A stretch of DNA of 64,000 bases from an uncultured Verrucomicrobiae bacterium (GCA_963731265.1 CAVSUE010000001.1:1024001-1088000); one strand, 5' to 3'. Shown: positions 22,555-27,165, numbered from the stretch's first letter. The notes: generated from the letters alone by a model not told the origin. Translations and numbers: made by a program.

Positions 22555-23358
22555 TTATTTGATCCCCCGCTTATATTCAAGCAGCTCATATCCACACGGG
22601 AGCTCCATAGAACAGGAAGTGCCATCCTCAAACTCTAATACAGTATTTGCAACCCCTTTTCTCTGTCCAACTACTTCCGGGGTAATGCTACATGTTATCG
22701 GCCCTTGCAAATTATGGGAGAGGATTTCCCCTCCGGAATACGAGATGAATTTGTATTTTTCCTGCTCCTCAATTCCACAAATGTCAAACGCATATAGTGT
22801 ATAGCCAGGTTCTGCGCAAAGTAGGGTGGCTTTCGCTAAAAGTCCTCTGCTCTCTTCTTTTAACAAAAGAGGACGAGGGTAAAAGACTATTTCTCTATAC
22901 GCGTCTTTAGCAGATAATCGGATTATCACCTTTTCTCCAGGTAAATACCCCCGAACACTGACCATGAGTCCTACAGGGCTGTTGCGGTTTTTAGAATCGA
23001 GGATACTTTCAGAAGAAGGGCCGGGAAGTGGGAAAAAGCGATCGGGATCAGGTTGTGAGAGCCTCTGTTGTTGGAGTGAATAGGGTGGATTGCCAGGGAT
23101 ATCGTGAAATATGATAAACCACTTAGCAAATCCAGGGTCTGCTTGAATAAAATCAGTCAAACCCATCTCTTTTGCCCATTGCTCGGTTGCATCGATGATT
23201 TCGATGCCATTATCCATTCGTTCCACGCATTCGAGTAAATGAGTTTTCTGATTGGCAACAAATTCTGTGGATTTTGATGATTCAGGCTCTTTAGAGTTTT
23301 TTTGACAGCCAAAACTCAAAAGAATAATCAAATATAGGCTACATTTAAATTGCATCAA
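22555..23358 (-). CDS. Hypothetical lipoprotein (candidate immunity protein)
   Basis: Lipobox-like LSFGC; 4-bp overlap with the upstream gene. Confidence 0.7.
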   Translation of the reverse strand: MMQFKCSLYLIILLSFGCQKNSKEPESSKSTEFVANQKTHLLECVERMDNGIEIIDATEQWAKEMGLTDFIQADPGFAKWFIIFHDIPGNPPYSLQQQRLSQPDPDRFFPLPGPSSESILDSKNRNSPVGLMVSVRGYLPGEKVIIRLSAKDAYREIVFYPRPLLLKEESRGLLAKATLLCAEPGYTLYAFDICGIEEQEKYKFISYSGGEILSHNLQGPITCSITPEVVGQRKGVANTVLEFEDGTSCSMELPCGYELLEYKRGIK

Positions 23359-23972
23359 TTTTCCTTCCGTGAAAAAATGGATAAAAATTCATTTCCCTCG
23401 AGAGCTGTACCGGAAGCGGCGATCATGACGGATTCTTTTAGTAGCTTTAGCCACTTTTCTCTTTCATCGTTACCCATTTTGTAATTTTTACGGGTAAAAC
23501 CAACGCGATGAAAACCTTTTTCAGTTAAAATACCTTTAGCAATTTCATGTTGTGGAGGTATACCATTGTATGGTTTATGCAAAATCCATTCATAAATGAT
23601 TTCATTTTTATTTTTCTGAATAACGTTACAGGTAGCTCTCCCTGAAGGGTATGACGTAACAATTTTCATAAGGATTTGATCGACAATTTTCTCAACACTA
23701 TTCTTAACTTTCCAATCTAAAACAGTCTTGTCATAATATTGAATGGCAATTAATTGTGTCCAATTGCTAGCGGATTGGGCCGAAGGCACCCATTCAACCG
23801 TTACATCTTTTTCAGAAATATTTTTGGAAATTTCTTTCCATTCCATCTTGTTGTCAGGTGGCAGTTTTAACGTAACCGCCTCAGGCGGAGTACGTCGACC
23901 AGAATTGTTCGCAGAAGCGAATTCAGAAAAAAGCAAAAATAACGATGTGAATATGGATGTTAATTTGTTCAT
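23355..23972 (-). CDS. Hypothetical exported protein (candidate immunity protein)
   Basis: Sec-type signal ending FASA; AT-rich. Confidence 0.7.
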   Translation of the reverse strand: MNKLTSIFTSLFLLFSEFASANNSGRRTPPEAVTLKLPPDNKMEWKEISKNISEKDVTVEWVPSAQSASNWTQLIAIQYYDKTVLDWKVKNSVEKIVDQILMKIVTSYPSGRATCNVIQKNKNEIIYEWILHKPYNGIPPQHEIAKGILTEKGFHRVGFTRKNYKMGNDEREKWLKLLKESVMIAASGTALEGNEFLSIFSRKEN

Positions 23973-25166: not shown

Positions 25167-27165
25167 GTTTCTCGTAATCCTTAATTACATCAATAATTGG
25201 TTTCCTTAAAGTCGGGGTTATTAAATGGTGATCGAACCCTTTTGCCCCATCATGGGATTTCAATATAACAAGCTCATCGCGCATTTTTAATGCTTCAGCA
25301 AATCTTTCCAATTTATCCCTTTCCGAGCCTCCCTGCATTTCAGCGTGCCAATAAGAAGAAAGAGTATCTCCGAGATGAACAATATCCCTGTCGCTGGCAT
25401 AATTAAACGATTTAAAACACATTTTTGCAGGAATAACTGCTGCAGGAGCAAGGGACACCACAATGATACGATCTCGGATTTCTTTGGGCAGGTCCATTAA
25501 AGCGTTTCTCGTATGAATCGTACCTTGACTATGGCAGAAGTGAAGAATTTTGGCATCCGGCTTATCAGAATTCTTCTCATGGAACTCCGTCCATTTTTTA
25601 ATCAGCAAATCTTTTGTCTTAGGAGAAGTTCCCCAATAGTTTAAAGCAATTGCTTCCAAGAGGTCGATTGCTGGACTGTTTGTGTGATTAAAGATCCCTT
25701 CTATACAGAGTTTGCCTGGGGATAAGTGATGAAGATAATTTGCTCCGCCAAACGCATCTTCAATATTATTATCCATTCCATTGATAAAAGTAATAAGCAT
25801 CCAATCTTTTGAGACTCCATCTGTTTTGAAATACCTTGACTGTTCTACTACCGAATGCGTCGCTATGCCAAATGGCAAAGGGCGATCGAGTTTGCAAATA
25901 AATGATTCTTCACAAGGTTTCTCCTTCAGATTCGTAAAAAATTGAGAAGTGCTCTGATTCCGATTTTCAGTCTGATTTTGCAGGAAAAGATCCCACGGAG
26001 AATTCGGAACCAGCAGCCCTGGATCAATCGAAGCTCGGCCAATGGTTTCCAGCTGTTCTGTAATTTTGTTCATAAATTCAGAGACTGTTTGGTAAGGGTT
26101 ATCGATCGGAGCCGTGATCTTTTGACCTTTTAGAAAGACATCCAATCGAGTGTAGGTGTCCAACAATTGTGGGTCGATGAAGCTGAAGGTTGGGGCTAGC
26201 GGCAGGGGAGGCGGGGGCGCAATGGCTGCGGCTTTGTGCGCTGCGACGGCGGAGAAGCCTTGGTCGATTCTTTCGTGGCCTGTGCGGATAAGATCTTGCC
26301 AATGCTGCTGGGCTGCTGAGGTTTTGGAGAATTCGTGGCGTTGGGCATCGGAGAGGACGGTATTTAAGACGGTCTCGATGGCGGTTTTTGTTGGGTCGAA
26401 ATCGGGATCTTCTTTTCTCAGATGGGCTAAATCAGCCTCGGTTAAGGCTTTTATGTGATTCAAGGTCTCCCAAGCGTTGTGCGCTTCTGATTTCGCTTGT
26501 TCTATTTCAGCATCTGAGGCGGTCTCCGGAGAAAAATTGGGAGCGGTGGATTGTAGCAGGCCTTGGACCCAATCGGGCAGGGGAGGAGGCGGTGGAGGAG
26601 AGGCGCTGGTTTTTTTGTCTTCTTCTTCTTCTTTTTTCTTTGGGGGGGTATTGACTGCTGCTGCACTGGTGCCGAGAACGCCGGAGAGTGCAAATGCTCC
26701 GGAGACGGCGGCAATCACGGCTGTGGCGATGAGGATCTCTTTTTTGTGATCTTTGACAAAATGTTCCACTTTGTGTGCGGCTTTCTTGGTCCCATGCGTA
26801 ATCGCTTTGAGGGCTTTCTTGGCAAGTTTACCGACTTTTTTGGCTCCTTCCTTCACTTCGTGATAGAGGCGGTGGAAAAAGCCTTTGGAAAGGAAGATTT
26901 CACCGGGGCTCTGAAAAGTGAATTCATGGGAAAAAGTAGTAGGGGCGAATACGAATTCCGAGGGTTCATCGCTTAAGTCGAGTTGTTCGACGTGGTGAGG
27001 AAAGGGGTTGGTTTGTGGAGAGAATTGGAAAAGCTTGCTTGGGTACTGAGGCATCGGACCCGGAATGTTGACAAGGCGTCCATTCCAAATCGCGGTTGCG
27101 CAAGGTTCGTTGCGATCGTCAAAAACATCAAAGGAATCCCCAGCGGCATCGACAGAATCGATCAT
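25147..27165 (-). CDS. Modular protein with a TM helix, Pro-rich linkers and a C-terminal alpha/beta-hydrolase (lipase-like) domain
   Basis: FINGMDN oxyanion region, HFCHSQG nucleophile elbow, RDIV and DHH. Confidence 0.75.
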   Translation of the reverse strand: MIDSVDAAGDSFDVFDDRNEPCATAIWNGRLVNIPGPMPQYPSKLFQFSPQTNPFPHHVEQLDLSDEPSEFVFAPTTFSHEFTFQSPGEIFLSKGFFHRLYHEVKEGAKKVGKLAKKALKAITHGTKKAAHKVEHFVKDHKKEILIATAVIAAVSGAFALSGVLGTSAAAVNTPPKKKEEEEDKKTSASPPPPPPLPDWVQGLLQSTAPNFSPETASDAEIEQAKSEAHNAWETLNHIKALTEADLAHLRKEDPDFDPTKTAIETVLNTVLSDAQRHEFSKTSAAQQHWQDLIRTGHERIDQGFSAVAAHKAAAIAPPPPLPLAPTFSFIDPQLLDTYTRLDVFLKGQKITAPIDNPYQTVSEFMNKITEQLETIGRASIDPGLLVPNSPWDLFLQNQTENRNQSTSQFFTNLKEKPCEESFICKLDRPLPFGIATHSVVEQSRYFKTDGVSKDWMLITFINGMDNNIEDAFGGANYLHHLSPGKLCIEGIFNHTNSPAIDLLEAIALNYWGTSPKTKDLLIKKWTEFHEKNSDKPDAKILHFCHSQGTIHTRNALMDLPKEIRDRIIVVSLAPAAVIPAKMCFKSFNYASDRDIVHLGDTLSSYWHAEMQGGSERDKLERFAEALKMRDELVILKSHDGAKGFDHHLITPTLRKPIIDVIKDYEKHEGNYP

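Follow-up and report, generated by a model that had tools for sequence, protein, structure and literature searches.

Among the described systems, the Rhs-type polymorphic toxins are some of the closest to the locus discussed here. According to the survey by Zhang et al. (2012; PMC3482391), such proteins end in a toxin-type domain whose partner gene follows closely downstream, recombination exchanges tip and partner as a unit, and one tip occurs on different carriers; the same survey reports RHS-borne toxin domains in chlamydiae together with three alpha/beta-hydrolase toxin families, and holds that intracellular bacteria hardly have immunity proteins. A locus alike in these respects, with homologous tips on true RHS proteins and an orphan-type array in a relative, is located on the minus strand at positions 22555-27165 of a 64,000-nucleotide stretch of DNA (the window; GCA_963731265.1 CAVSUE010000001.1:1024001-1088000) from an uncultured Verrucomicrobiae bacterium. 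It consists of a run of four open reading frames (ORFs), g672, g395, g205 and g267 in the order of transcription, which are coupled by a 20-base-pair (bp) overlap (g672/g395), a 6-bp gap (g395/g205) and a 4-bp overlap (g205/g267), an arrangement that had been read from the DNA in an earlier inspection (the original prediction) and is borne out by the ORF listing. The locus probably represents a polymorphic toxin-immunity system, belonging to a chlamydia-like bacterium and based on a carrier without an earlier description.

One difference from the Rhs-type systems lies in this carrier, as g672, by ORF reading and a Pfam scan, lacks RHS repeats, DUF6531 and a signal peptide, its tip being borne by a head and an internal anchor that belong to no known family. 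In addition, Pfam assigns neither tip nor partner to a named Tox or Imm family. The elements that carry the argument are the following:

25147-27165, minus strand: g672, 672 amino acids (aa), carrier-plus-tip protein and candidate toxin
25954-26084, minus strand: 45-aa (135-bp) linker unit of g672, one copy, ending at the homology and composition breakpoint at 25964
25150-25845, minus strand: alpha/beta-hydrolase tip of g672, aa 441-672, predicted from an AlphaFold 2 (AF2) model and an invariant triad
25528-25530, 25384-25386 and 25228-25230, minus strand: catalytic codons of the tip for Ser546, Asp594 and His646, respectively
23979-25166, minus strand: g395, 395 aa, two-domain exported protein
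24585-25166, minus strand: N-domain of g395, aa 1-194, exported partner and candidate immunity protein

The tip of g672 and the N-domain of g395 travel together as a two-gene cassette, and this cassette has been exchanged by recombination at the linker. In a close relative (locus L001; 90-91% protein identity for the two upstream genes), window positions 25964-29157 are matched as one block with 91.3% DNA identity; past 25964 only 25377-26084 is still matched (74.8%), and then nothing until 18168-18906. At the protein level residues 1-330 of g672 are 98% identical, as opposed to 53% for the tip and 41% for the partner. The break in homology is at the same time the end of the 45-aa linker unit, which in L001 forms a 135-bp tandem repeat of 3.6 copies with three places that match window stretch 25954-26084, and the point at which the guanine-plus-cytosine (GC) content drops from 50.7% (25964-27165, the N-terminal 1.2 kb of g672) to 39.7% (25147-25963, its last 0.8 kb). 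In the downstream genes the GC content is 37.5% (g395), 36.2% (g205) and 42.5% (g267), with 45.9% for the contig. Both the swappable C-terminal tip and the turn to AT-rich DNA inside g672, each part of the original prediction, are thus recovered, and at one and the same position. The closest tips to that of the window are those of a second copy in its own genome (63-65%) and of a further genome in the genus (65%), not the tip on the near-identical carrier of L001.

Homologues of the g395 N-domain are located directly downstream of a g672 homologue in L001, L002, L004, L005, L008 (in two copies) and L010, and the junction of tip and partner in the relatives is usually a 4-bp overlap. A word-based homologue search with the partner N-domain found only two proteins; partner sequences were taken from the loci, and a profile was built from the downstream homologues of g395 aa ~1-190. 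This profile matches the ORF after the tip in all six loci fetched in which the tip ends an RHS-repeat protein (expectation values (E) of 1.6e-28 to 4.1e-53), and two tandem partner ORFs after an RHS frame of the source genome itself (E 7.6e-23 and 8.7e-22). Of the 12 best tip loci in the phylum search, 11 can be evaluated and 10 have a partner after the tip (L030 ends too early, L031 has none); the same holds for 60 of the 71 evaluable loci of a GTDB-wide set of 80, of which nine are not evaluable and several repeat loci of the smaller sets. The proposed pairing of the tip with an exported downstream partner is supported by all three sets.

Export of the partner is indicated by a hydrophobic head in 94 of 95 distinct partner ORFs, 64 of which also carry a lipobox by a PROSITE-type pattern. 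The head of g395 is signal-like with a non-canonical FNCC that falls outside this pattern, while the head of g205 is signal-like without Cys, so that of the two lipoboxes ascribed to the downstream genes only that of g267 (LSFGC), which fits the pattern, can be upheld. The partner N-domain is modelled as an alpha+beta domain of ~160 aa, for which a fold search returned weak matches (3ib5, Z 7.4; EscJ, Z 6.2) in a result list filled by matches of the g395 C-domain.

The tip is not confined to membrane-anchored carriers. When searched by itself against 1.84 billion representatives, it matches 940 clusters at E<=1e-3, 208 of them at E<=1e-30, with the match at the C-terminal end in all 150 clusters listed of the 940. 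Within the phylum a tip match at E<=1e-5 is found in 290 of 400 sampled genomes and 177 of 212 genera, where the weakest of the 290, such as those from a family with 1.1-1.2-Mb genomes, are perhaps DUF687-like rather than true tips. Many of the phylum matches end open frames of 1,500-2,900 aa; in six of six such frames fetched the tip is at the extreme C-terminus, and all five long frames scanned carry RHS_repeat (E 1.6e-46 to 1.5e-63) together with DUF6531. The source genome possesses an RHS frame of 1,429 aa (RHS_repeat E 5.7e-55), in which a distant tip (profile E 1.4e-5 over 140 positions; BLASTP E 3e-6, 24% identity) comes after the usual Rhs core end. In a maximum-likelihood tree of 29 tips (27 distinct) this own-genome Rhs tip groups with a membrane-carrier tip (100/100), and another membrane-carrier tip is placed inside the Rhs clade (99/99). 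These placements imply that the label Rhs versus membrane carrier needs at least two changes across well-supported branches. The occurrence of the same tip-partner pair on RHS-repeat proteins is the hallmark of polymorphic toxin cassettes, and tip and partner would quite probably represent a toxin and its immunity protein.

Several observations concern the surroundings of the other copies. One relative (L041; G060:C1:82000-95500) displays an orphan-type array composed of an RHS tip protein, a partner, a 173-aa tip fragment, an opposite-strand 323-aa ORF and a second partner. In the source genome (coordinates on G000) an rve-type integrase ORF (G000:C1:1782825-1783799, rve_3 E 5.5e-30) adjoins the RHS frame, and beyond it is a 287-aa ORF without a Pfam family. 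A paralogous cassette (G000:C1:643108-645699) encodes an N-part of 443 aa, a tip of 276 aa and a partner of 189 aa. It is flanked by direct repeats of 708 bp that are 99.3% identical (G000:C1:642070-642777 and 645917-646624); both are fragments of an amino-acid permease gene, which places the paralogous cassette within a recent local duplication. A third tip-like domain is part of a 401-aa protein (G000:C1:462785-463990; profile E 1e-29) with the nucleophile motif CHSRG and without a partner. No hydrophobic anchor was noticed in this protein, and the 273-aa ORF downstream of it appears methyltransferase-like on reading its sequence.

With respect to its chemistry, hydrolysis of an ester or thioester by the tip is well supported. 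The AF2 model of aa 430-672, calculated with 60 relatives, is a compact alpha/beta hydrolase (pLDDT 94.2, pTM 0.90), and Ser546 (in CHSQG), Asp594 (in RDIV) and His646 (in DHH), which follow the canonical triad order, are invariant in a 60-sequence alignment, as is C583 and nearly so C544. Foldseek with this model returns generic relatives only (E from 5e-6, TM-scores 0.3-0.5), while a wide VIA structure search finds Obc1 (Z 13.6), a cutinase (13.1), a carboxylesterase (12.9) and lipases, thioesterases and phospholipases (11-12). Searched alone against Pfam at E<=10, the tip matches only Abhydrolase_8 (0.039) and Cutinase (0.057), and whole g672 has no match at E<=0.01. The C-terminal lipase of the original prediction is consequently retained as a Ser-Asp-His alpha/beta hydrolase; the designation lipase is a reasonable guess, though too specific for a fold that resembles those of esterases, cutinases and lipases to about the same degree.

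A Ser-Asp-His alpha/beta hydrolase combined with an exported, often lipoprotein partner is also characteristic of the Tle/Tli pairs of type VI secretion systems (T6SS), and the fold class of the T6SS immunity proteins TplEi and Tsi3 recurs in the C-domain of g395. In contrast to these pairs, the nucleophile of g672 is set in C-H-S-Q-G and not in G-x-S-x-G, no match to a Tle family (e.g. DUF2235) appeared in the Pfam scans, and the main partner domain belongs to another family with no clear fold match. Furthermore, the T6SS sheath PF05943 (TssC/VipB), the sole T6SS component searched, has no match in the 96%-complete genome, whereas the E. coli control was positive. The parallel to Tle/Tli that was drawn originally is therefore one of functional analogy only.

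Also alike is DUF687 (PF05095; CT326, CPn0066 etc.), which is chlamydial, membrane-associated and has an alpha/beta-hydrolase-like domain. A check with the hidden Markov model of this family, suggested along with the original prediction, points to a distant relation, as PF05095 matches 8 of the 60 tip relatives (E<=0.01) and two of five Rhs tips, two of the matches being above the model cut-off, while the window's own tip has no match at E<=10. DUF687 proteins are described as predicted Incs of Chlamydiaceae (PMC3048545) and, in a 2024 survey, as alpha/beta hydrolases that are catalytically dead and carry a membrane bundle at the C-terminus (PMC11878206).

The carrier of g672 is modular, with a head (WNGR), a Lys-rich stretch, a hydrophobic segment, Pro-rich and helical spacers and the 45-aa linker unit preceding the 230-aa hydrolase. 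The parts upstream of the linker are:

26866-27165, minus strand: acidic N-terminal head, aa 1-100, with WNGR at aa 27-30 invariant in two alignments
26650-26865, minus strand: Lys-rich amphipathic stretch, FVKDHKKE and single hydrophobic segment, aa 101-172
26185-26598, minus strand: spacer with a first poly-Pro run (aa 190-195), a conserved helical region and a second poly-Pro run (aa 317-320)

VKDHKKE at aa 137-143 leads into a hydrophobic stretch at aa 142-166 (Kyte-Doolittle window), the whole hydrophobic region being ~25-29 aa long, with a net positive flank on the N-side and a neutral one on the C-side. All motifs that had been quoted for g672, namely the basic stretch leading into a hydrophobic helix, the two poly-Pro runs and HSQG/RDIV/DHH, are present. 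Besides g672 itself 13 homologues were found, and across seven diverse relatives the WNGR head, the Lys-rich stretch and FVKDHKKE with the anchor are invariant or nearly so. The succession of head, anchor, spacer and tip is the common architecture of the close relatives even where N-terminal sequences no longer align: in 112 of the 156 tip-bearing proteins examined the tip is preceded by 150 residues or more, and 98 of these 112 possess an internal hydrophobic region (median 30 aa; at least 38 aa in 8 of the 98), while none of the 112 has a hydrophobic region within 15 aa of the N-terminus. The N-module profile matches in 50 of 401 genomes at E<=1e-8, with many matches that cover the anchor region only, and the phylum search finds the full N-module mostly restricted to the source organism's own family. 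Genus-wide, every complete N-module frame bears the hydrolase tip, with the partner next wherever the sequence extends. A search of the ESM Atlas with the N-module gave nothing usable, and the PDB sequence search no relative of g672.

Among 16 anchor-region matches fetched, three come with tip and partner and 13 with neither. The 13 tip-less HKKE-anchor proteins were considered as carriers of alternative toxin tips and rejected, as ten of them are one TPR family that shares only ~100 compositionally biased residues. The proteins of this family, 640-750 aa in length, share HKKE and the hydrophobic segment with g672 and continue with TPR repeats; a copy is found in this genome (L090:1380-3593; G000:C1 ~967380-969593) and in nine other genomes, and one member displays a weak SseC-family match over the anchor region (E 7e-4, below the cut-off).

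The anchor bears on one alternative, in which g672 would be an anchored periplasmic esterase that remodels the bacterium's own envelope, e.g. in the developmental cycle, with the lipoprotein acting as a regulator or as a folding helper like the lipase-specific foldases. HKKE and the hydrophobic segment are common to a conserved TPR membrane-protein family (10 of the 13 non-tip proteins examined), and the predicted N-in/C-out topology, the tight operon coupling, the wide spread in the phylum (290 of 400 genomes) and the Pro-rich spacers, which resemble those of TonB, would all suit such an enzyme. Housekeeping genes, though, are not replaced wholesale between strains with 91%-identical flanks nor borne on RHS proteins, and they are neither multi-copy with divergent alleles in one genome nor split or located beside an integrase ORF. 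The alpha+beta model of the partner (~160 aa) is, moreover, unlike the lipase foldases, which are all-helical. Cumulatively, a housekeeping role is very unlikely.

If, instead, the locus encodes a toxin and its immunity protein, g672 would be inserted in the inner membrane via its single hydrophobic segment with the N-terminus in the cytoplasm, a topology inferred from the positive charges on the N-side of the segment, and the Pro-rich and helical spacers would keep the tip on the periplasmic side. Passage through the periplasm would likewise be expected of the Rhs-borne tips, given the signal-peptide-like head at the start of at least one Rhs frame (L040). In the periplasm the exported partner, mostly a lipoprotein, would bind and block the tip and thereby protect the envelope of the producer, while a tip that is delivered or released might attack cells without the cognate partner by cleaving esters in their envelope lipids or in a different acylated component. 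Release at the linker, vesicles or contact in a shared inclusion are guesses at the route to the other cell, and the victims might be rival chlamydiae sharing the host cell, or host membranes.

The source genome (2.34 Mb, 96% complete) has five matches to the nucleotide transporter PF03219, four of them full length, and one FHIPEP (SctV/FlhA-type) gene. Records of relatives of g672 or its tip are titled Chlamydiae, Chlamydiota, Chlamydiales and Parachlamydiaceae, others being labelled Verrucomicrobia, 'uncultured bacterium' and, for one bin, Acidobacteria. Because of the five transporter matches and the titles of the relatives' records the organism is considered chlamydia-like, in agreement with the chlamydial origin assumed in the original prediction, and from its sequence is treated as an environmental chlamydia of the obligate-intracellular type. 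Two of the transporter matches show peculiarities, as one (G000:C1:1261831-1263237) has an in-frame TAG and the fifth is partial (87 of 491 positions; window 57404-57658, within a 497-aa frame).

An obligate-intracellular lifestyle, to which the five nucleotide-transporter matches and the FHIPEP/SctV gene point, is in line with a second alternative, a host-directed effector: an Inc-like or secreted g672 would act on lipids of the host or the inclusion membrane, and the partner would shield the own envelope with no bacterial rival involved. As in Inc proteins, the hydrophobic segment of g672, which has no signal peptide, is internal, ~140 aa from the N-terminus, and followed by a large C-terminal domain; a region of Inc-like length (at least 38 aa) is reached in 8 of the 98 relatives. 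DUF687, the nearest Pfam family, contains the Chlamydiaceae predicted Incs CT326, CPn0066, CPn0069, CPn0381 and CPn0882 (PMC3048545), and Zhang et al. (2012; PMC3482391) regard the toxins of intracellular bacteria as mostly aimed at the host. Partner-less tip proteins, found in 11 of the 71 evaluable loci and as the 401-aa paralogue of the own genome with a methyltransferase-like gene downstream instead, fit an effector as well. On the other hand, the bilobed Inc domain comprises ~40 aa or more, of which the ~25-29 aa of g672 fall short, and Incs come without an exported partner. A type III substrate bypasses the periplasm, yet the partner is predicted to be exported in 94 of 95 cases, and the RHS-borne cassette, the tandem partners, the orphan-type array and the replacement of tip and partner on near-identical carriers are the usual marks of conflict of bacterium versus bacterium. 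An effector aimed at the host is thus unlikely. Granted a toxin-immunity pair, the chance that rival bacteria are its target is somewhat below even. A still wider proposal, in which the tip with its cognate exported immunity lipoprotein is shuffled between Rhs and membrane-anchored carriers as a phylum-wide, T6SS-independent weapon against kin, rivals are fought inside the host cell or inclusion that they share and the anchor represents a new delivery route, is doubtful.

Against the reading as a polymorphic toxin-immunity system speak, first, observations on the carriers. A variable C-terminal domain, a downstream partner (by linkage) and the same tip on RHS and membrane-anchor carriers are found as in other polymorphic toxins, but one N-module with different kinds of toxin domain is not. 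The search for the same N-terminus with different tips, proposed as a check of the original prediction, recovered none, as all complete N-module proteins in the genus carry one tip family, and the variation is thus one of alleles of a single toxin type. For g672, which by ORF reading and Pfam scan has none of the Rhs features named at the outset, a delivery machine was not identified, and no T6SS sheath gene was found in the 96%-complete genome. The own-genome RHS frame has no DUF6531 region, and its immediate upstream neighbour, on the opposite strand, is an rve-integrase ORF; the RHS gene may be truncated or interrupted by an insertion element. In the paralogous cassette N-part and tip are in different frames with an overlap of ~110 bp, and the same split is seen in a close relative.

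Second, the pairing is not universal, with the partner missing in 11 of 71 GTDB-wide loci, all of them short frames of 222-388 aa, and in L003 and L031. Over 29 loci, two pairs of which are identical, the identities of tips and partners are correlated (Spearman 0.76, reached by none of 2000 permutations), a correlation that demonstrates co-inheritance and not co-evolution, because adjacent genes diverge together by linkage alone. With a generic fold match the tip is a putative lipase, and its toxicity, its binding by the partner and interbacterial targeting are predictions. Of the toxin-immunity system as originally conceived, the swappable tip and its pairing with an exported partner are upheld, while the N-module with different tips is not.

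The remaining parts of the locus, downstream of the partner domain, are:

23982-24584, minus strand: C-domain of g395, aa 195-395, sporadic second exported domain with Mog1/PsbP-like fold
23355-23972, minus strand: g205, 205 aa, exported protein
22555-23358, minus strand: g267, 267 aa, lipoprotein, with a TTG start and ATG one codon on

For none of the four genes did Pfam and NCBIfam searches find a family. The C-domain of g395 occurs in 9 of 401 genomes, either fused to the partner domain or alone with its own signal, and twice adjoins tip-like genes. In the model of whole g395 (pLDDT 87.6) it resembles Mog1p (Z 11.8), Tsi3 (Z 9.5), TplEi (Z 8.6) and PA3488 (Z 6), and Eag chaperones belong to the same fold class; the likeness to the T6SS immunity proteins Tsi3 and TplEi is, on this model, one of shared fold only. 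Homologues of g205 follow the partner gene in L004/L096, L049, L050 and L092, and in the ESM Atlas g205 retrieves unnamed clusters together with one of the HI_0983 family (0.95), which is treated as a lead only. The lipoprotein family of g267 is fairly conserved, with 31 homologues besides itself (47-84% identity). Homologues of g267 are linked to a toxin locus in G092, G305, L003, L111, L136, L109, L112 and L037, in the last of which the homologue is fused behind a partner domain, and an unlinked fragment occurs in G131. In L003 (= L069) the g267 homologue is convergent and right after the toxin gene, in the place of the partner, and the idea has been raised from this locus that g267-type proteins stand in as partner. 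Both g205 and g267 recur in such loci and may be further immunity or accessory proteins; as orphan immunity genes, in the sense of the original prediction, they are candidates at most.

Upstream of g672 and on the same strand are a BioH/RutD-like alpha/beta hydrolase (27251-27940) and a 373-aa ORF (27937-29058), while downstream, on the opposite strand, an AAA_14/DUF4143 ATPase is located at 21295-22554. The variable island in the window (18906-25964), in place of which L001 has other genes (1002-aa and 296-aa ORFs), also holds this ATPase, the greater part of a TIG/PKD/beta-propeller protein (18649-20583) and a 243-aa ORF (20429-21160). A promoter and terminator scan gave counts no higher than in shuffled sequence.

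While the kind of system is already known, the tip as an active toxin-type domain, the partner family, the membrane-anchored carrier and the breadth of the system in an intracellular phylum appear to be undescribed, and a literature search outside subscription journals found no paper describing tip, partner or carrier. Polymorphic toxins and their immunity genes signal direct competition between related bacteria, and the locus would represent a probable toxin-immunity weapon in bacteria thought to need one little. It points to a carrier module without a known secretion route and suggests a likely enzyme ancestry for the uncharacterised DUF687 proteins of the pathogenic Chlamydiaceae. Conflict of strain versus strain within host cells thereby becomes a testable idea.

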